Positions 728-17,922 of a stretch of 64,000 nucleotides of DNA are shown here, one piece after another. The stretch comes from Desulfatiglandales bacterium (GTDB lineage Bacteria; Desulfobacterota; DSM-4660; Desulfatiglandales; Desulfatiglandaceae), in contig OY759599.1 of the NCBI GenBank assembly GCA_963662465.1, positions 7,904,001 to 7,968,000 of the forward strand. The letters run 5' to 3'. The notes beneath the pieces were generated by a model. The model was not told the origin of the DNA. It saw nothing but the letters and a program-made list of their open reading frames with translations, and did not search any database. Position 1 is the stretch's first letter; the number at the start of each line of letters is the position of its first letter. A program made the translations under genes and the position numbers.

Positions 728-979
728 GTGCCCGATTGGCATCGCTTTGAACCATCGAATTTTGAATATGACTTTGAGAAAGACAAATTATCTGTCCACC
801 ATATCTCGTTCAACGAGGCGGTAGAATGTTTCTTTTCTGACTATGAAGTCCGGAAGAACAAACAATATCGAGACCGTTATCAATTGATCGGGAAGACAAT
901 TGGTGGGCGCAAGCTAAAGATAATTTTCCAACTCAAACCCAAGAGCATTGTCCGCATTATTACCGGGTGGCCCATATGA
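728..979 (+). CDS. BrnT-family (DUF497-like) toxin
   Basis: FEYDFEKDKL..HHISFNEAVECF..RYQLIGKT..IVRIITGW pattern; ATGA overlap with next gene. Confidence 0.7.
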   Translation: MPDWHRFEPSNFEYDFEKDKLSVHHISFNEAVECFFSDYEVRKNKQYRDRYQLIGKTIGGRKLKIIFQLKPKSIVRIITGWPI

Positions 980-1275
980 CCGCAAGGAACGACAAGATAA
1001 GGCAAAATATTTCGGCTCAGGAAATCGACCGCATCGTAGTGGAGCAGGCCGATAACGATTCCAAATGGGAAGGCCCCATTTATGTGAGTAAGTCGAAAAC
1101 TGCTTCCTTGACCATCCCCGCGACCCTTGCAGCACGAGCGGCTTTCCTGGCTAGAGTGCACAGGGCAGAGGGGCTCGATGAGTGGCTGACTCGCATTATC
1201 CGAGAGCGAATTGAGCTGGAAGAAACCGCTTTCAGTGAAGCAAAACATGAAATGTATTCCAGGAGTGGCACCTAA
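976..1275 (+). CDS. Putative antitoxin (CopG/RHH-like C-terminus)
   Basis: Coupled to the toxin via ATGA at 976-979; C-terminal SLTIPATLAARAAFLA..LTRIIRERIE is ribbon-helix-helix-like. Confidence 0.55.
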   Translation: MTARNDKIRQNISAQEIDRIVVEQADNDSKWEGPIYVSKSKTASLTIPATLAARAAFLARVHRAEGLDEWLTRIIRERIELEETAFSEAKHEMYSRSGT

Positions 1276-1623
1276 TAGCTGTCTGGATGATCCGTACTTT
1301 CCGTTTCCGGGGTTTTTTTCTCGTTCCCAAGTTCTCCACTTTAAGTGCTTTCCTGAACACGGTCACGGTTCCTTCGATAGTCCGTTTGGCTCAATACGAC
1401 AATCTTGAAGCTTTTCTGGATCGGCTTCAAAAGGAAGATGGGCTACTCAAAAAGTGGTGTGATGTTGAACAGAAAGGTTTGGTCAGAAAGCGGAAGGAAT
1501 CTAAAGAGTTGATTAAACTGCAAGATTTCTCTGAAGGCTGTTGCCAGAAGCAATTGGCAAAGGCTGCTTAAAGCAAATATCGCGCCAAAAGATCAAATTA
1601 TCAAAGAACTATTTTTCGAAAAC

Positions 1624-2037
1624 TCAAGTATTTAAGTACCTGAATACATATTTTATGATATGTACCGTTCGTATACGCCACTCATCGTCGTAAGGGCTTT
1701 CTACTAACACACGACCAATCATATCAGTATAATTGTGATCATTTGGATCGATTACAAAATTCTCAGATATCTTTCCAAGGTTGTTGCCAAATTCATCGAA
1801 AAGACCTTTCTGCTTTGCTTGGAGCATCATATCAAGTGCCAATGAAATTGGGATTCGCCAATATGCCCCTTTCTCAAAGTAAAACCGCCGGTTTGTTCTG
1901 GAACTTGGCCGGGTTTCTCGCCAACTAATACAACTGAAATTTGGGATTAAATCGATTCGATTTTGTCGGACAAGTTTAATATTGCCGGACTGTACAAGGT
2001 CTTCCTGATGATACTTTGCCATACGGTCTCCTTTCAC
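1624..2037 (-). CDS. Hypothetical protein
   Basis: 137-aa AT-rich ORF; AGGAG precedes the internal ATG (MAKY). Confidence 0.45.
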   Translation of the reverse strand: MKGDRMAKYHQEDLVQSGNIKLVRQNRIDLIPNFSCISWRETRPSSRTNRRFYFEKGAYWRIPISLALDMMLQAKQKGLFDEFGNNLGKISENFVIDPNDHNYTDMIGRVLVESPYDDEWRIRTVHIIKYVFRYLNT

Positions 2038-2246
2038 CCTGGCGGTGTTGATTGCTAACAGTTAGGATAGGTGAAAAAGTTTCCATGTATTGTGCTTATA
2101 TATCACAGAAAAAATCTCCCCTGTTATGATATTGCTATGTAAGATATAGAAAAAAAGATACTGGTTTTTCCATATATTGCATACTAGCGATAATAGCATT
2201 GAATATGCGCAAACCTAGCCAAAGTCAGTTTTTAAATATGAACTAT

Positions 2247-2351
2247 TATAGTGCCGGTCAAATGACTCGATACCAGATTTAAGCCCCAAATACCTTAAAA
2301 ATGGGGCTTTCAAGTCTCAAAACAGTATCAGGTCATGTGACCGGCACTATA
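2247..2351. mobile_element. MITE-like element with ~27-bp terminal inverted repeats
   Basis: TATAGTGCCGGTCAAATGACTCGATAC (from 2247) vs reverse complement of GTATCAGGTCATGTGACCGGCACTATA (to 2351): 24/27; inner AAGCCCCA/TGGGGCTT stem. Confidence 0.6.
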
Positions 2352-2556
2352 GTCCCCGCATCTTTCCAGTTTTCCTCTTGTATTCCATGCGCATAAAATC
2401 CCCCAGTACCCCATGAAATCCGGCGAAGGCTGGCGTAGTTCTTAGAACTTCATCCTGCGGCCAAAAATCCTTATGCCAGTACTCAAAGCGGGACTGGAAA
2501 CGAAATCCATTTCACAGGTGCCCTCTTTTAAATAATCAAAAAGTCAAATGACCAAA

Positions 2557-3459
2557 TCATCCATCGTTTTGGGAACGCACCGCAAAGGCCCGAAAGTTGT
2601 AGACGTCGTTGCGGGTGCCCCACCCGCCGCCGTAGCCGAAGTATAAGTACCTGGTGATAGAGGAATCTTCAGTTCCACTTGACCACACATACCGACCAGT
2701 GGTCTTCAAAAGAGGCGCCATGTTCTGATCCTCAAGCCCTTTCTCATGGATGTCTTCCAGTTCATTCAATGTAGGCATACGCCAACCGCCGCCTCCTGTG
2801 TTTCTTAATTTGTTCACCCAGGACTTTGCCTGCTTCCACGTCGTGTCCTTGTCCGGTCCAGCTATCCACTCAAGACCTGTTTTCGTATCCTTCACTATGT
2901 TGTTCCCGGCAGAAATATCATGCCCTTGTGTCTGCCCTGAATCGACTGGCGACGCGGTGGGCGATTTCCCATTCTCAAGCCTAAACTCGACTTCCTGAAA
3001 TTTGTCAGGGGTCAGTTCAACTTCCTTTCGGGAACGCACCGCAAACGCTCGGCGGTAGCTGGAGGCGTTGCGGTAGCCCGAGATGTAGTGCCATTCCCTG
3101 CTGCCGAGGGGGAAGTAGAAGGCCCTGGCCGTATAGGAGCCATCAGTTTCACCCGACCATACATGCCAACCAGTGGTCTTCAAGAGAGGCGTCATGTTCT
3201 GATCCTCAAGCCCCTTCTCATAGATACCTTCCAGTTCATCCATGGTAGGCATTCGCCAGCCGCCGCCTGTTTTCAGGTCGGCCACCCATGATTTCGCCTT
3301 ATCCCAGGTCGTATCCTTGTCCGGCCCCGCTATCCACTCAAGACCGGTTTTCGTATCCTTTACGATGTTATTCCCTATAGCTGCATAACGTTCGTCGATG
3401 CCTCTTCCGGAATGCTGACGACATTGATCCTGCCCTGGTTTTTTATCAGTTGGAACCCT
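2557..3459 (-). CDS. Two tandem DUF1566 (Lcl C-terminal, C-type-lectin-like) domains; probable 3' part of the upstream kinase gene
   Basis: Two copies of GNNIVKDTKTGLEW..TTW..AKSWV..GGGWRMPT..EL..W..RAFAVRS. The frame is open up to 3459, and the first domain starts upstream of the only start codon (GTG 3285). Confidence 0.75.
   Translation of the reverse strand, partial: RVPTDKKPGQDQCRQHSGRGIDERYAAIGNNIVKDTKTGLEWIAGPDKDTTWDKAKSWVADLKTGGGWRMPTMDELEGIYEKGLEDQNMTPLLKTTGWHVWSGETDGSYTARAFYFPLGSREWHYISGYRNASSYRRAFAVRSRKEVELTPDKFQEVEFRLENGKSPTASPVDSGQTQGHDISAGNNIVKDTKTGLEWIAGPDKDTTWKQAKSWVNKLRNTGGGGWRMPTLNELEDIHEKGLEDQNMAPLLKTTGRYVWSSGTEDSSITRYLYFGYGGGWGTRNDVYNFRAFAVRSQNDG
2571..3375 (-). repeat. 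Tandem duplication of the DUF1566 coding unit (~2571-2907 and ~3030-3375)
   Basis: Highly similar framework DNA, divergent 3' segments, identical 16-mer GGGAACGCACCGCAAA at 2571-2586 and 3030-3045. Confidence 0.85.
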
Positions 3460-5792
3460 TCATTTAGAATGCTTCCCGGCAAAATCTGAATCTCTTTTTC
3501 GACATCGATATACGAATCGAGTTTAAGTGTAATAGTTTGTTTTCCAGGTCCAATCTTTAGTTTGACGTTCGTCTTAAAGTTTGACATCTTGCCATTAACC
3601 CAGATAGTGGCACACTGTGGAAGGCTATTCAGATTGAGGTGGCAAGGAATGGGTTTGAGCGATTCATCGAGTTTTACCTCTTGATCCAAATTTACGGCCA
3701 CGTCCCCTGAAACCTCTTGATGATTATCCGCCTCAAACCTGTATTTATGGGTTCCTGCCGTTACATCCGCCACGGTCAGCGGCGGTTTGCCCATCAGTTT
3801 CCCATCAAGATAGAAACGGGCAGGATAGGCATCAGAGAAAGTCTTGGCGCTTACATTGATGCTGCCGGTCTGATGCTCCAGAATAACATGGATACGGTTC
3901 TCTTCATCAGGGATGATTCTTTCAATCCGACTCACGGGGAAAAAGCCGTTCATCTTCAGACGAATAGTCTTTTTACCAGCGCCCACACGATCTATTGTTA
4001 GCGGAGTTGCGCCTCGTTCAATCCCATCCACAAGAACGGTTGCCATCTCCGGTTCCGATGTGATAACCAGGGTTCCGACACCTTTCTCTTCTCCGGTTTT
4101 CAAGGCAGTCCCCGAAGTGGCCGAAATAACGCGATCACCTTTATCTTTACTCAGACCAAGACGAGAACGAAAATCCTTCTCCAGGAATTCGCTTTCACTC
4201 GAATCAAGCCCGAGTTCTTGTGACTTTGCGGTGAGGGTTGTGCGCACATTTTCCGGTAATTTACCATCCGGGGCAAAGGCGTACGCAAACTCAAGGGCTG
4301 TCAGAAATTGATCACCGGGCATAGGCCCGGACGGAGCGGCTTGGAGTATCTCAACTGCCGCTTGCTCGGGCGAAAAGAGATCTAACAAGGTGGAGATATC
4401 GGCTAATCTCTGGTCTACCTCAATTCTTGTGGCCTTATTCAAGAGATCATCGATCTTGCTTGCCGTGTCTTTTCCGAGCCCCTGAACGTACCGCTCAATA
4501 GGCTCCAGGTCGTGAAAACCGATCAGTCGCCCTGTCAAAATTCGATAAATCATCACACCGAGGGAAAAGACATCAGCCCGCCGGTCCGTCTCTTTGAATC
4601 CCCCGCGCTGTTCAGGAGCGCCGTAGTATTGGGTGGCTAAATTTGTACCGGTTACAGTTTCAAATGCCTTTGATAGCAAATTCGCCCTGCCGGTCTCTCG
4701 GGCCAGACCAAAATCTCCAATATATGGGCGGTCGTCTTTGTCTAAAAGAATGTTGGCGGGCTTGAGATCCCGATGGATGATGGACTCCGATCGATTATGA
4801 AGCCAATGGATCGATGTCAGAATTCCGCTAATGATCGGGAAGGCCCTGTCATAGCTGAGATATCCGCCTCTCCCAGTTTGCAATAGTTCGTCATCAGATC
4901 CGATCAGACTGGAGAGGTTTTTGGGGTAATAATCCATGGTAAGGTAGGGCTTTCCCCGCCATGTCTTGGTATGGCGTGCGTTGACAATTCCGGGAACGCC
5001 TTCCGTGGAGAGCCGGAGCATAATGCCTGCTTCGCGCCGGAATCTTTCCTTGAGTTCGGAAAGAGAAAGGCCCGATTCACGGACTAAATTAGGCTGCGGG
5101 GAAAAGATTTTTATGGCCGCCTGAAACGAAACCCCTTTTGGCGATGCTAAAAAGACCGAAGCAAATCCACCACTGCCAAGCCTGCGTTCAATAACGTAAT
5201 TGTCGAATTCCTGGAGGTTGTCCGGTAGGACATAAGACCGTTCCTGGGCCGCCTGGTAGTCTGAATGCATCGTTTGAGGAAGTCGACCGCCAGAACGACG
5301 CAACTCCTCCACCAACATAACAAACTCATCGGCGTTGTCCTCCAGGTCCATCTCCTTGAGCCGCCCAATGATCCCCTCATGCTTTTCCTTTTGAGCATTT
5401 TCCCTCAACTTCTGAAAACGTCCCTGATATTCTTTATAGAGCCCTTCTGCCTCCGGTCTTGTCTTTCCGGAATAGACTCCTTCCTTCAACCCCTCGTCAA
5501 TGGAATCCAGTATCCCTTCGATAAGGCTGTAGTTTGGCCCGTCAAAAGGCGTACTCATGAGTGTGGTCCGATGTTCGGTCAGGCGCTTTTGGTGGAATTC
5601 TTCCATATATGCATCATGACGATCCTTGATCACAGCCAAGGCCTTACCGGTCTCTTGGCGGTTATCAAGGGCATCTTTTAGGCAATTGACAGCCCCTTCA
5701 AGATCATGAGACTCGTAAAGCTGCCGGGCCTTGTCAACAGCCGAGGCCTGCCCGGTTGAGAACACCCCCTTCATACGATTAAGAAAGCCCAT
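3375..5792 (-). CDS. Hanks-type Ser/Thr protein kinase with C-terminal PEGA repeats
   Basis: LGSGGFASVF, AAIK, HRDLKPANILL, DFGLA, APEQ, DVFSLG; PEGA-like repeats (GTLVITSEPEMATVLVDG..TPL). Confidence 0.92.
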   Translation of the reverse strand: MGFLNRMKGVFSTGQASAVDKARQLYESHDLEGAVNCLKDALDNRQETGKALAVIKDRHDAYMEEFHQKRLTEHRTTLMSTPFDGPNYSLIEGILDSIDEGLKEGVYSGKTRPEAEGLYKEYQGRFQKLRENAQKEKHEGIIGRLKEMDLEDNADEFVMLVEELRRSGGRLPQTMHSDYQAAQERSYVLPDNLQEFDNYVIERRLGSGGFASVFLASPKGVSFQAAIKIFSPQPNLVRESGLSLSELKERFRREAGIMLRLSTEGVPGIVNARHTKTWRGKPYLTMDYYPKNLSSLIGSDDELLQTGRGGYLSYDRAFPIISGILTSIHWLHNRSESIIHRDLKPANILLDKDDRPYIGDFGLARETGRANLLSKAFETVTGTNLATQYYGAPEQRGGFKETDRRADVFSLGVMIYRILTGRLIGFHDLEPIERYVQGLGKDTASKIDDLLNKATRIEVDQRLADISTLLDLFSPEQAAVEILQAAPSGPMPGDQFLTALEFAYAFAPDGKLPENVRTTLTAKSQELGLDSSESEFLEKDFRSRLGLSKDKGDRVISATSGTALKTGEEKGVGTLVITSEPEMATVLVDGIERGATPLTIDRVGAGKKTIRLKMNGFFPVSRIERIIPDEENRIHVILEHQTGSINVSAKTFSDAYPARFYLDGKLMGKPPLTVADVTAGTHKYRFEADNHQEVSGDVAVNLDQEVKLDESLKPIPCHLNLNSLPQCATIWVNGKMSNFKTNVKLKIGPGKQTITLKLDSYIDVEKEIQILPGSILNEGFQLIKNQGRINVVSIPEEASTNVMQL

Positions 5793-5834: not shown

Positions 5835-6620
5835 TTACACCGGAAAGGCCCACCATTCAACAAAAAGATATCCAACAGATAAGAAAGCGAGCCCGAATCC
5901 GAGCTGGATCAGAATATATACGGTCTTGTTCTCCCTTGAACGAAGGTTATAGAAAACGCTACGGTTGAGAAACCGGATGACACCCAGCATGACCAGCAAA
6001 GAAAGGAAACCAATCCCTCCTTTCCACCAACCTGAAACAAGCCTTTCCCTAACCAGCGGCCATTCCCATCCATTAATGCTGTTCTGGGCGTGAATCGCGG
6101 TGGCCGTTTCGGCATCCCAAAGCGCTGCCTGAATCACGGTTTCATTTCCGTTCAGCCAGTATGTCCCGGTGAGGAAATACCTCGCCCCCAGGACCCTTCC
6201 CACCGCAGCCGCAGTCTCTTCATTAATCATGAAATCGGTTTCACGTTTTTTCATGTCATAGAATTTGTCCATGTCGCGCATCACATACATGAACTTGTTC
6301 GACCTGTCCATTGCCATGCCCAATTGTTTCTGAAGGCGTATGCCGAAAGGAAGGACTTCTTTGGTCCCCTCTTCCCTGAAAAGGTACACTGCAACCGTTT
6401 GCCGGTCGCCGAGCGCCCAGGGGATTTTCCGGTACTCCTTCCCCCCGGGTTCCTTGAACACAAACCGCCATACCGCCTTGCTATCCAATTCCGTGACCAC
6501 TTGTTCCGCCAGCTGCTGGAGAACATCTGTGGCCTCCGGATAGACGTCCGCAAAGGCGGTGCTTGAAGCCAGAAGCGCTATATACACCAGAAAAATAAAA
6601 AAGGTTTGTTTTGTAATCAC
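5835..6620 (-). CDS. Membrane protein with CsgG/FlgO-like exported domain
   Basis: Signal peptide (..STAFA/D), AAAVGRVLGARYFLTGTY motif, two C-terminal hydrophobic helices. Confidence 0.55.
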   Translation of the reverse strand: MITKQTFFIFLVYIALLASSTAFADVYPEATDVLQQLAEQVVTELDSKAVWRFVFKEPGGKEYRKIPWALGDRQTVAVYLFREEGTKEVLPFGIRLQKQLGMAMDRSNKFMYVMRDMDKFYDMKKRETDFMINEETAAAVGRVLGARYFLTGTYWLNGNETVIQAALWDAETATAIHAQNSINGWEWPLVRERLVSGWWKGGIGFLSLLVMLGVIRFLNRSVFYNLRSRENKTVYILIQLGFGLAFLSVGYLFVEWWAFPV

Positions 6621-13360: not shown

Positions 13361-13606
13361 GGCTCATCGCGGATTAACGTGAAAATCGCTACTGACTTCG
13401 CTTTCGCACTCGTTCCCATGCTCTGCGTGGGAACTGTTTTCGGACGCTCTGCGTCCCGGTTTGGACCCCTAAGAAATGGGTCTGTAGCGGTTCAAAAGAC
13501 GAATTGTCGGACGCGGGAGCGTCCAAGGTAGGTTCCCACGCAGAGCATGGGAACCAGCCCGAGAGAACAACAAAATTCTCTTCTTCACGTTAATCCGCGA
13601 AGACCC
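13361..13606. mobile_element. MITE with 23-bp TIRs and 8-bp target-site duplication (ISL3-like ends)
   Basis: TIRs 13361-13383 and 13584-13606 match 21/23; ATTCTAAG repeated at 13353-13360 and 13607-13614. Confidence 0.8.
13412..13554. repeat. REP doublet (REPIN-like long palindrome)
   Basis: GTTCCCATGCTCTGCGTGGGAAC (13412-13434) and its perfect reverse complement (13532-13554), with inner GGACGCTC..GCGTCC palindromes. Confidence 0.8.
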
Positions 13607-14836: not shown

Positions 14837-15035
14837 CGAAAAGTGAGCTCATCTGGTGACGAGTGGACTTTCCCAAGAAACCATCATTTCGCCGCTGTTT
14901 CCCGAAATACAACACGGGACAATATTCTGGTGGTTACCTACGATCTGACGCTGAATCCTGCCTTGACTCGAGATGAGCTGTGAACCGACAACCGTGAATA
15001 TGTCAAAGCTTCCACTGATCAGGAGGCAGTGTGAA

Positions 15036-15289
15036 CTCAGGCCTTGACCCTGGCCATTACGCCGGCGATATCCTCTTGATTAAACTGATAGGGCGTTGCG
15101 CAATGCCGGCATTTGATCTCCATGGGAAAAGGGCCGTTTTCAGCCAGATCCTTCAGGTCTGACATGGGAAGCATGGCCAGCATCTGTAGAACCCGGTTAT
15201 GATTGCAGTGGCACATGAACTCAATCCGGTGATCCCCCAGAAATTGGGGATTCAGACCCTTGAAAACATTTGAAACCAAGGTTTCAGGC
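15036..15289 (-). pseudogene. hslO: Duplicated 3' fragment of hslO
   Basis: About 10 substitutions over ~255 bp relative to 16986-17239 (offset 1950); no 5' part. Confidence 0.9.
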
Positions 15290-15800
15290 TTTTCTCCGCT
15301 GTTAAAAGAGAACCGCGGAGCTGAACTGAATCTGGATCACATCCAGGCCATGCTCCCCGGCGACACGAATGTTGCTGCTGAGGATTATGAAATTGAACTG
15401 AAATCGAACCAGGCAAACTTTCCGACCGCCGATGTACACGGGCCGGCCGGCCTGGGCGGGGTGTGCGGGGAATATATCTTCGATAACACGCTTACGCTTG
15501 TCAGGGAAGATGCTCTGAAGCTGTTTTCAGAAACGATTGAATCCCATCCTGCAGGCACAGTCACCCTCATCACCACCGGCCCTCTCACCAATCTGGCCCG
15601 CTTCATCGAGCAGTGCCCGGAAACGGTCAAAAAACTGCGGCGGGTCATCGCCATGGGCGAGGTTTTCTTTAAAGTCCGGCAACCGAAGCCAGGCCGCTGA
15701 ATTCAATATCCATTTCGATCCCACGTCCGCCAAAAAGGTGGTTGAATTCCGCCGCGCCCCCAAGTCTTCCGGTCTTGGCCGATGGCATGAGACCCACTAG
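15290..15800 (+). pseudogene. Nucleoside hydrolase (IunH-family) fragment, frameshifted
   Basis: DVHGPAGLGG, TGPLTNLA, VIAMG in one frame; GN..AAEFNIHFDP in another; N-terminal DxDxGxDD motif absent. Confidence 0.75.
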
Positions 15801-16539: not shown

Positions 16540-16986
16540 GTCATCACCTTTTGAGAAGTCTTACTGTAAGTATTACCTTCTAAAGAATATACGTCAAGTG
16601 AAAATACTCTGGACGGCGATTCCCACTATGAAGATTGATTGGGCCCAAAATCAGCGGAAGACGCATCTTGCCAACCTTTGCAGATCGTTTGCTGCTAATG
16701 AATCGCTGATGCTCGGCGACGGATATGATCGTCGCGGCGCTGGCGCAAACGCCGTCCATGTACTTGTAAATGGGGATCGGACTTCTAATGGCTGCCGGAA
16801 CGATTGTTGTCGTTGCTGCCCCTGTAGCTGCAGCTGCGGCCATTGGCGGACTGGTTTACCGGCTCTTCAGCGACTGATGGCACTTTTTAATTTCCGATGG
16901 AAAAATTCTTGAACATATAGGGGTCGGTCAATTTGTTACTCATTGCGCCGCATGGGAATCTTGCTGTCACACAGTGTGAACGAAAC

Positions 16987-17922
16987 TCAGGCCTTGACCC
17001 CGGCCATTATTCCGGCGATATCCTCTTGATTAAATTGGTAGGGCGTTGCGCAATGCCGGCATTTGATCTCCAGGGGAAAAGGGCCGTTTTCAGCCAGATC
17101 CTTCAGGTCGGACATGGGAAGCATGGCCAGCATCTGTAGAACCCGGTTATGATTGCAGTGGCACATGAACTCAATCCGGTGATCCCCCAGAAATTGGGGA
17201 TTCAGACCCTTGAAAACATTTGAGACCAAAGCTTCAGGCGCTTCTCTATCCGCAAATGCCGTACCGATTGACGGCAGGTCCGCCGCCATGGCTTCAAGAT
17301 TGTCGATGGCGGCTCCATCGGCGCCGGGCATGACCTGTAAAAACAGGCCTCCGGCCCCGGTCGTATTTCCCCCGGGATCAAATTTGATGCTCAGGTTGAA
17401 GACCGTGGGGGTTTGTTCGGATTTGAGGTAATAGTATGCCAGGTCCTTGGCAATGCTGCCGTACATGAGTTCCACCTGGCCTGTAAAGGGTTGTTTCGCG
17501 TCCCTGAAGGTTTTGGCGACCGACAGGAAGCCGGCCCCAAAAAAGGGGGAAAGGTCGAAGTCTTGAAGGGGTTTGGTGATGGGGATGGGAACGTTTTTCA
17601 AATATCCCCGGACTTCGCCAAAGGCGTTCGCTTCCACCACAAGGCCTTTGATGGGACCCGAACAGTCTATTTTCAGACAGATCCGTTCATCTCCCTTGAG
17701 CCCGGCGCACATCAAAGCGGCTCCCATGTAGGCATGCCCCAGCACCAGGGTTTCCAGGATGCCCAGTTCATGGTTGGCCCGCATTTCATTGACCATGCGC
17801 GTTCCGTGCAGAATGGCTCCTCTGATCATGCCGCCTGAAAGGATGAAATGATAGAGTTTGTCCCTGGCATTGGCTTTAAGCTGGTCTTTCAAGGTGTTGC
17901 CGTAAGGTTGTTTCTTGATCAT
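16987..17922 (-). CDS. hslO: Hsp33 redox-regulated chaperone
   Basis: GPIKGLVVEA..GEVRGY, YYLKSEQTPT, AGGLFLQVMPG, CHC..CRHC zinc motif. Confidence 0.93.
   Translation of the reverse strand: MIKKQPYGNTLKDQLKANARDKLYHFILSGGMIRGAILHGTRMVNEMRANHELGILETLVLGHAYMGAALMCAGLKGDERICLKIDCSGPIKGLVVEANAFGEVRGYLKNVPIPITKPLQDFDLSPFFGAGFLSVAKTFRDAKQPFTGQVELMYGSIAKDLAYYYLKSEQTPTVFNLSIKFDPGGNTTGAGGLFLQVMPGADGAAIDNLEAMAADLPSIGTAFADREAPEALVSNVFKGLNPQFLGDHRIEFMCHCNHNRVLQMLAMLPMSDLKDLAENGPFPLEIKCRHCATPYQFNQEDIAGIMAGVKA

Follow-up and report, generated by a model that had tools for sequence, protein, structure and literature searches.

Probable orphan variable regions of a lost diversity-generating retroelement in two lectin tips behind a kinase gene of a Desulfatiglandales bacterium

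Diversity-generating retroelements (DGRs) copy a template repeat (TR) with errors at its adenines into the variable region (VR) of a target gene, and several described systems of this kind bear on the gene considered here. This gene lies on the minus strand of a 64,000-nt stretch (the window; positions 7,904,001 to 7,968,000 of contig OY759599.1) of the genome of a Desulfatiglandales bacterium, and its DNA joins a Hanks-type Ser/Thr kinase to two lectin-type heads. Coordinates are positions within the window unless they are given for the host genome, which is one closed contig of 8.16 Mb rated 100% complete. In the part of the survey by Wu et al. (2018, PMC5758913) used here, DGR target category 'd' comprises DUF1566, DUF823 as well as Fib_succ_major domains with CLec2-type VRs, of the Legionella LdtA type. 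The window shares with this category, as that part presents it, a VR at the C-terminus of a DUF1566 C-type-lectin-like domain, and its scaffold is homologous to a TR resident at 404 kb of the host genome (AWNVNFNNGN.NWNNK.NNNYVRAVRGG). It differs in its 3' end (RAFAVRS instead of YVRAVRGG), in the absence of a cognate TR from the host genome, and in a kinase open reading frame (ORF) without visible signal peptide or membrane stretch.

Cyanobacterial variable proteins (VPs) with Ser/Thr kinases, together with 'remote VPs' and 'VP homologs', have been described by Vallota-Eastman et al. (2020, PMC7517822). As far as the sections of that paper drawn on here go, these proteins carry an N-terminal Hanks-type kinase and a C-terminal C-type lectin domain (CLec) with a DGR VR, are mostly predicted to be cytosolic, and have paralogs dispersed in the genome, some of which no longer match the TR. 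The window resembles them in these respects but belongs to another phylum, has PEGA repeats and two tandem DUF1566 heads, lies in a genome without any cognate cassette and has a broken fusion frame. For Thiohalocapsa PB-PSB1, portions of a preprint (bioRxiv 10.1101/2023.09.22.558884) describe degenerate DGR loci and kinase- or caspase-type 'antigen sensor' targets. There too, one large genome holds several DGRs, some loci are 'degenerate' with missing or pseudogenised machinery, CLec targets are fused to Pkinase or caspase-like domains, and mobile repeats stand at broken edges. According to the same portions, however, most targets in PB-PSB1 were shown to vary in nature, whereas no variation was seen in the contigs over the lectin gene considered here, and the window's genome has lost the whole template class. 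Kinase–lectin DGR targets and degenerate DGR loci are thus already published, and the window is a relic-state case of that kind.

As judged from sequence comparison, the two lectin tips most likely owe their sequence to a DGR that the genome has since lost, and are probably frozen orphan VRs. They are read as frozen relics and not as parts of a working diversifying sensor because no matching template accompanies them and the kinase and the heads lie in different frames.

Mutagenesis marks in the lectin tails

Positions 2557-3385 encode, on the minus strand, two tandem Lcl_C/DUF1566 C-type-lectin-like domains whose frameworks are 81-85% identical in DNA and whose tails do not align. The last 22-28 codons of each domain are rich in codons ending in C (NNC), which make up 17 of 21 codons over 2596-2658 and 21 of 26 over 3052-3129. 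Both tails are closed by the same 16-mer, TTTGCGGTGCGTTCCC on the coding strand (encoding FAVRS), which is also the template-type 3' end. It lies at 3030..3045 behind the VR1-like segment (ARAFYF...SSYRRA; 28 codons, 3046..3129) and at 2571..2586 behind the VR2-like segment (TRYLYFGYGGGWGTRNDVYNFRA; 23 codons, 2587..2655), both probably relic DGR VRs. The NNC counts and the shared 16-mer had been claimed in an earlier sequence-only reading of this DNA, and both were reproduced exactly.

NNC counts were simulated given the amino acids, with codon usage taken from 1443 long ORFs of the host genome. The VR1-like segment has 21 NNC codons out of 27 against 9.6 expected, a number reached in 0 of 100,000 simulations, and the VR2-like segment 15 of 21 against 7.1 expected (P = 0.0002), while the frameworks lie below expectation (20/92 with 26.7 expected and 23/126 with 36.5 expected). 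Since the excess persists given the amino acids, it is not due to amino-acid composition. Furthermore, in 21 homologous domains from the host genome, its relatives and the metagenome-assembled genome (MAG) L120 described below, the entropy at codon positions 1/2/3 is 0.61/0.51/1.32 in the framework versus 1.23/1.19/1.09 in the tail, and the NNC fraction is 0.58 in the tail versus 0.25 in the framework. With the codon usage of the host genome applied to all, the NNC excess has P < 0.01 in 15 of 28 family tails. These tails share a common scaffold of 23 codons, in which TTC, TTC, GGC, TGG, CGC, TCC and AGG/CGG GCN are fixed among the NNC codons.

With AAY put in place of the NNC codons, a motif of 21 letters was obtained and searched for in one genome per species of 185,579 species. 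There were 17 exact matches, and two of them, in L120 (a Thermodesulfobacteriota MAG) and L107 (a Planctomycetota MAG), are AAC-rich non-coding repeats that read into a reverse transcriptase (RT) of the DGR clade; the other 15 are unrelated, an RT being present at the L120 and L107 loci only. A scan of metagenomes returned 58 stretches, among them a template of this type with an RT (L137); one other stretch belongs to another DUF1566 type, and the rest are unrelated, most of them encoding the same WNNRNNSF-containing protein. In viral contigs, two pattern scans found no template of this type: the first pattern gave two stretches, one a different DUF1566-type template (..GFVRAVRA) and the other unrelated, and the second gave none.

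The L120 locus (MAG148, JBFMAW010000007.1) is ordered as a Peptidase_C14+Lcl_C target ending in ...RAFAVRSRR, Avd, TR and RT. The sequence-only reading had predicted a template of the form AAC TTC AAC AAC GGC AAC .. TGG AAC AAC CGC AAC AAC .. TTT GCG GTG CGT TC, and this is present nearly letter for letter in L120, beside Avd and the DGR-clade RT. The VR of L120 itself departs from its TR at 15 of 28 adenines and at 1 of 53 other bases, and the same genome holds a second, remote VR of this type. In the alignment with this TR of another organism, 16 of 26 adenines are mismatched in the VR2-like tail of the window, against 5 of 55 other bases (Fisher P = 1e-6), with a 3-nt gap, and 18 of 28 adenines in the VR1-like tail, against 7 of 56 other bases (P = 2e-6), with a 12-nt insertion. 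The L137 and L107 templates give a similar adenine-specific pattern, and the 16-mer of VR2 plus the four preceding bases is identical to the 3' end of the L120 TR at 20 of 20 positions.

Because the mismatches concentrate at template adenines, the tails appear to carry the mark of DGR mutagenesis from an L120-like template. The C that ends the AAC codons of the template is retained in the variable codons of the tails. The mismatch check that the sequence-only reading had proposed, run here against the template of a foreign genome, bears out its view of the tails as DGR-type variable regions, and a DGR origin of both is strongly supported on these alignments. The window and L120 have in common the Lcl_C subfamily with its ending ...RAFAVRSR, the 23-codon VR scaffold, the 3' anchor shared with VR2 and, in part, the post-stop spacer. 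They differ in that L120 has Avd, TR, RT, a GC hairpin and a near-perfect adenine-only pattern (15 adenine mismatches and 1 other), whereas the window is without all of this machinery and its tails have indels and 5-7 non-adenine changes; moreover, the scaffold is a kinase in the window and a caspase in L120.

Template search and state of the targets

No cognate template was found in the closed host genome by blastn-short, an adenine-tolerant ungapped scan, a scaffold scan or a motif search, which returned only coding paralogs. The same methods did recover the resident DGRs at 404 kb, 1133 kb and 3602-3606 kb, plus an RT fragment at 2625 kb with a template-like copy, and in the resident TR–VR pairs, which served as positive control, 14/14, 19/19, 21/21, 21/23 and 23/24 of the mismatches fall at adenines. 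The DGR RTs at 404 kb and 1133 kb are intact and the one at 3602 kb is broken, the 3602-3606 kb element being interrupted by a transposase-like ORF; all of them have other templates. The distance to the TR is ~187 kb for one resident target and ~6.3 Mb for a looser match (23/30). The latter belongs to the 1133-kb element (genome positions 1133259-1134400), which consists of an intact DGR RT, an HRDC-like upstream ORF and an FGE-sulfatase-type template; the best VR match of this template is an imperfect one at 7469359-7469492, where a 1326-aa protein ends. The host genome has 47 RVT_1 matches in all, most of them in families of identical or near-identical copies that are likely group II intron RTs.

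Several candidate donors were set aside. The resident TR at 404 kb has a homologous scaffold but shows 17 and 20 non-adenine mismatches to the window tails and is not cognate. Matches of 24 nt near RTs at 294, 443, 2371 and 3345 kb belong to a repeated intron-like element, and a 29-nt match at genome position 1052962 is a solitary leftover from a VR 3' end and spacer, with no AAC-rich part. Among 105 genomes of the family, many of them incomplete, a scan for the scaffold pattern with up to 3 mismatches allowed gave 13 matches in 9 genomes, none of them AAC-rich. No DGR RT was detected at E <= 1e-5 within up to 10 kb on either side of homologous domains at 20 loci of relatives.

Signs of decay are visible around the tails themselves. 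VR2 falls short of the template scaffold by one codon (-3 nt) and VR1 exceeds it by four (+12 nt), so that neither tail has the length equal to that of the TR which is expected of an active target. In L120 the VR is followed by an 8-bp GC hairpin, and no such hairpin was found by folding after VR1 or VR2 of the window, although the 3' anchor is present at VR2. A GC-rich hairpin or cruciform after the anchor is reportedly needed in the Bordetella phage system. The 36 nt that follow the stop codon behind VR2 (2521..2556) form a spacer that two paralogs also have, conserved, after their VRs and that is kept in part after L120's true VR. Farther on, the window sequence departs from theirs, and alignment, blastn of the L120 cassette and folding revealed neither hairpin nor avd. 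The two paralogs have avd stubs directly behind them, one of 44 aa at 486 kb that is 80% identical to the L120 Avd and one of 37 aa (68%) at 1171 kb, and no TR or RT of this type follows either stub. Given that two paralogs retain truncated avd stubs, the cassette seems to have decayed. The 486-kb stub breaks off at a short inverted-repeat element.

Contigs assembled from three public runs (X2, X3 and X4; two samples of one study) reproduce positions 2400-3600, or parts of this region that include the kinase–lectin junction and VR1, with no difference; these runs are possibly the assembly's own source, and their agreement is not independent support. Run X4 has no contig over 2445-2940, a gap that proves nothing. 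No variants were seen within the VRs in these contigs, and two samples gave the same VR1 sequence, with the proviso that contigs drop rare variants. A further run (X1) from another study, in which this sequence has a small share, matched no more than the conserved 3' end, in short and diverged pieces from which the habitat is not inferable.

The sequence-only reading had taken the tails for remote targets that are now being diversified, on a kinase with two hypervariable heads. The DGR mark on the tails is supported; the fusion is not, as the heads are not in the kinase frame. Present diversification as remote targets is not supported either: the cognate template is absent from the closed genome, although the same methods recover that genome's other TR–VR pairs, remote ones included, and the 105 family genomes, the tail lengths, the missing hairpin and the frame tell the same way. 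As an alternative, this reading has a DGR on the chromosome, a plasmid or a prophage act in trans on the tails as live remote targets. DGRs do act on remote targets according to part of the survey cited above (PMC5758913), the host's own DGRs match sequences ~187 kb and, more loosely, ~6.3 Mb away, L120 has a remote VR of this very type, the 3' anchor is fully retained, and two intact DGR RTs reside in the chromosome. Against this stand four template searches with working positive controls, resident templates that are not cognate, the absence of the hairpin after both VRs, the non-adenine mismatches, the identity of VR1 in contigs of two samples and heads that are out of frame with the kinase; the lengths of the VRs are off the scaffold as well, a deviation that overwriting with template cDNA should presumably remove. 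With no cognate template, deviating lengths, no hairpin and a -1 frame, the status of active target is not supported, and live diversification appears very unlikely.

Kinase, lectin heads and the frame break between them

In the kinase-PEGA ORF (3375..5792, minus strand, 805 aa), three PEGA domains come after a Hanks-type Ser/Thr kinase. The ORF matches the Pfam profiles Pkinase (PF00069; 105.6 bits, cut-off 31.7, E = 3.9e-30) and PEGA (E = 1.9e-27, three stretches), and its translation contains the catalytic motifs LGSGGFASV, AAIKIF, HRDLKPAN, DFG and GAPE of a Hanks-type kinase, which we take to be the Gly loop, the VAIK-type Lys, HRD, DFG and APE, respectively. No signal peptide or membrane stretch was seen in this ORF. 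A cytoplasmic location of the kinase protein is plausible, because no hydrophobic 19-residue stretch occurs outside the kinase core.

With regard to the lectin heads, the first DUF1566/Lcl_C domain copy spans 3022..3385 and the second 2560..2910. Between them lies a linker (2911..3021) whose start (VELTPDKFQEVEFRL) matches the end of the paralog's last PEGA domain. Both copies match the Pfam profile Lcl_C (PF07603) in two stretches (E = 6e-26, 91.4 bits, cut-off 34.9). The AlphaFold2 model of copy 2, with a predicted local distance difference test score (pLDDT) of 80.6, has a C-type-lectin-like fold; its best match in the PDB is 8q4e, the C-terminal domain of Legionella Lcl (E = 5e-5, TM 0.58), and the next matches are C-type-lectin-like domains.

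The heads had been described in the sequence-only reading as attached to the Ser/Thr kinase, which is true of the DNA only. The DUF1566 frame is shifted by -1 relative to kinase-PEGA, is open over 2557-3459 and has its first start codon, a GTG at 3285, inside domain 1, while the kinase-PEGA ORF stops at 3375, seven codons past the broken junction (3390..3405). Two related genes allow the break to be placed. A paralog in the host genome (483943-487302) is an in-frame kinase-PEGA-DUF1566x2 gene of 1120 aa, 61% identical in the kinase part, and the ortholog in a sister species (contig C17 of genome G005, positions 1477-4785) is in frame over 1103 aa with 82% amino-acid identity. In alignment with the paralog, the window gene follows frame 1 up to gene nt 2394 and frame 3 from nt 2403; homology to the ortholog stops at gene nt 2398, equivalent to window position 3395, and the DUF1566 linker starts three codons later, so that homology to both relatives stops at about 3395. 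Kinase and lectin domains share one reading frame in the paralog and do not in the window, and the break is explained by the window being 10 nt shorter than ortholog and paralog at the junction. Where the two DUF1566 domains would stand, the sister-species ortholog ends in an FGE-sulfatase-type lectin domain; as the alignment has it, the lectin tail is swapped between kinase orthologs of sister species.

A slippery heptamer, A_AAA_AAC, lies in the kinase frame at 3438..3444, inside the 84-nt overlap of the two frames, and is formally a -1 slippage site. Programmed frameshifting here would yield mostly kinase-PEGA and a minor kinase-PEGA-DUF1566x2 fusion of ~1078 aa, a length near those of the paralog and the ortholog; a -1 slip would enter the DUF1566 frame exactly, and this shifted frame is open for 300 codons. 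No stable structure was found downstream, however (z = +0.57, with DNA folding parameters only), and zero-frame homology to the ortholog runs 43 nt past the heptamer, to about 3395. The heptamer is absent from ortholog and paralog, the 10-nt gap accounts for the break, and by a rough estimate, not computed, such a heptamer would occur by chance in about 1 in 10 overlaps this long. Programmed frameshifting is therefore given little chance of being the explanation.

Some observations do weigh against frozen orphan VRs. An uninterrupted -1 frame of 300 codons, together with an NNC signal that has stayed strong, would mean either that the loss and the frame break are recent or that the domains are still translated, and the in-frame heptamer within the overlap is of the same tenor. 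Low-level VR variation could escape notice, assembled contigs being the data examined, and for the same reason a cassette on an unassembled plasmid or phage is possible; the scan of the family covered many incomplete genomes. The template used for comparison is foreign, so that the 5-7 non-adenine mismatches may partly reflect this and not decay. As to the view that the tails are ordinary coding sequence, in which a loop rich in Tyr, Gly, Ser, Asn and Asp and a local codon bias mimic a DGR, it can hardly be right even though Tyr-, Ser- and Gly-rich binding loops occur commonly and the host genome is without a template, since the NNC excess remains given the amino acids, third positions are more conserved than first and second ones in the tail only, the tails fit a real template at non-adenines and depart from it at adenines, and avd stubs stand behind two paralogs.

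Proposed history and surroundings of the gene

A history consistent with frozen orphan VRs would begin in an ancestor with an L120-type cassette, from whose template cDNA with errors at adenines may have been made and written over lectin tips, with the constant FAVRS-coding 3' end as anchor. The target module would then have been duplicated onto kinase, caspase (genome positions 1603938-1605296) and secreted scaffolds, and deletions would later have eroded the cassette, so that every copy stayed behind as a single fixed binding variant. In the window, a late loss of 10 nt would have uncoupled the two heads from the kinase, after which a fusion product likely no longer arises, or does so only via rare ribosome slippage.

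A bolder proposal, and a rather unlikely one, is that the output of the retroelement became a heritable repertoire. Many different tips written by an L120-type DGR would have been duplicated, shuffled onto the three kinds of scaffold named above and kept after the loss of the DGR, copies with the 3' anchor intact would serve as acceptor sites for a horizontally re-acquired Avd-TR-RT cassette, and -1 slippage would give some kinase two heads. At least 10 heads at 7 places in the host genome fit this picture, as does the sister-species orthologous kinase with its different DGR-type lectin tail.

The locus illustrates how DGR-written sequence can be recognised after the retroelement has gone, namely by NNC codons, inverted variability of codon positions, a constant 3' anchor and a template that survives elsewhere. 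It also documents a path of decay of a multi-target DGR family, marked by avd stubs, the loss of a hairpin, indels and a broken frame. With regard to annotation, such genes should not be labelled active DGR targets. In this family, frozen lectin-head variants occur on signalling scaffolds as a natural set, and their ligand specificities could be compared.

The caspase-type gene at 1603938-1605296 encodes a Peptidase_C14-DUF1566 protein with the same architecture as the L120 target. Its tail is the most template-like in the host genome, matching 49 of 53 scaffold bases (TGG AAC AAC CGC...), and no cassette was found after this gene. Immediately upstream of the kinase, a 261-aa ORF with no Pfam match occupies window positions 5835-6620 (minus strand); a similar, apparently truncated ORF at genome positions 483377-483949 precedes the paralogous kinase, and the two genes may form a unit.

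On the other side of the lectin gene, 200 nt downstream of it, an imperfect inverted repeat of ~29 nt around ~45 nt (2249-2352) has one other, diverged copy in the genome, at 4780038-4780146. A small plus-strand ORF at 728-979 has a sub-threshold match to the BrnT toxin (31 bits, cut-off 34.5) and is overlapped by a 102-aa ORF with no family match at 967-1275 (plus strand), so that the two are possibly a toxin–antitoxin pair. Farther into the window, a 263-nt direct repeat occurs at 15034-15296 and 16984-17246, with copies that lie 1950 nt apart and are 95% identical, and an inverted repeat of 49 nt at 13401-13565 contains the motif ..CGTTCCCA.GCTCTGCGTGGGAAC... Another occurrence of this motif is upstream of the 1133-kb DGR, at 1132.6-1132.8 kb, and a related motif stands where the 486-kb avd stub breaks.

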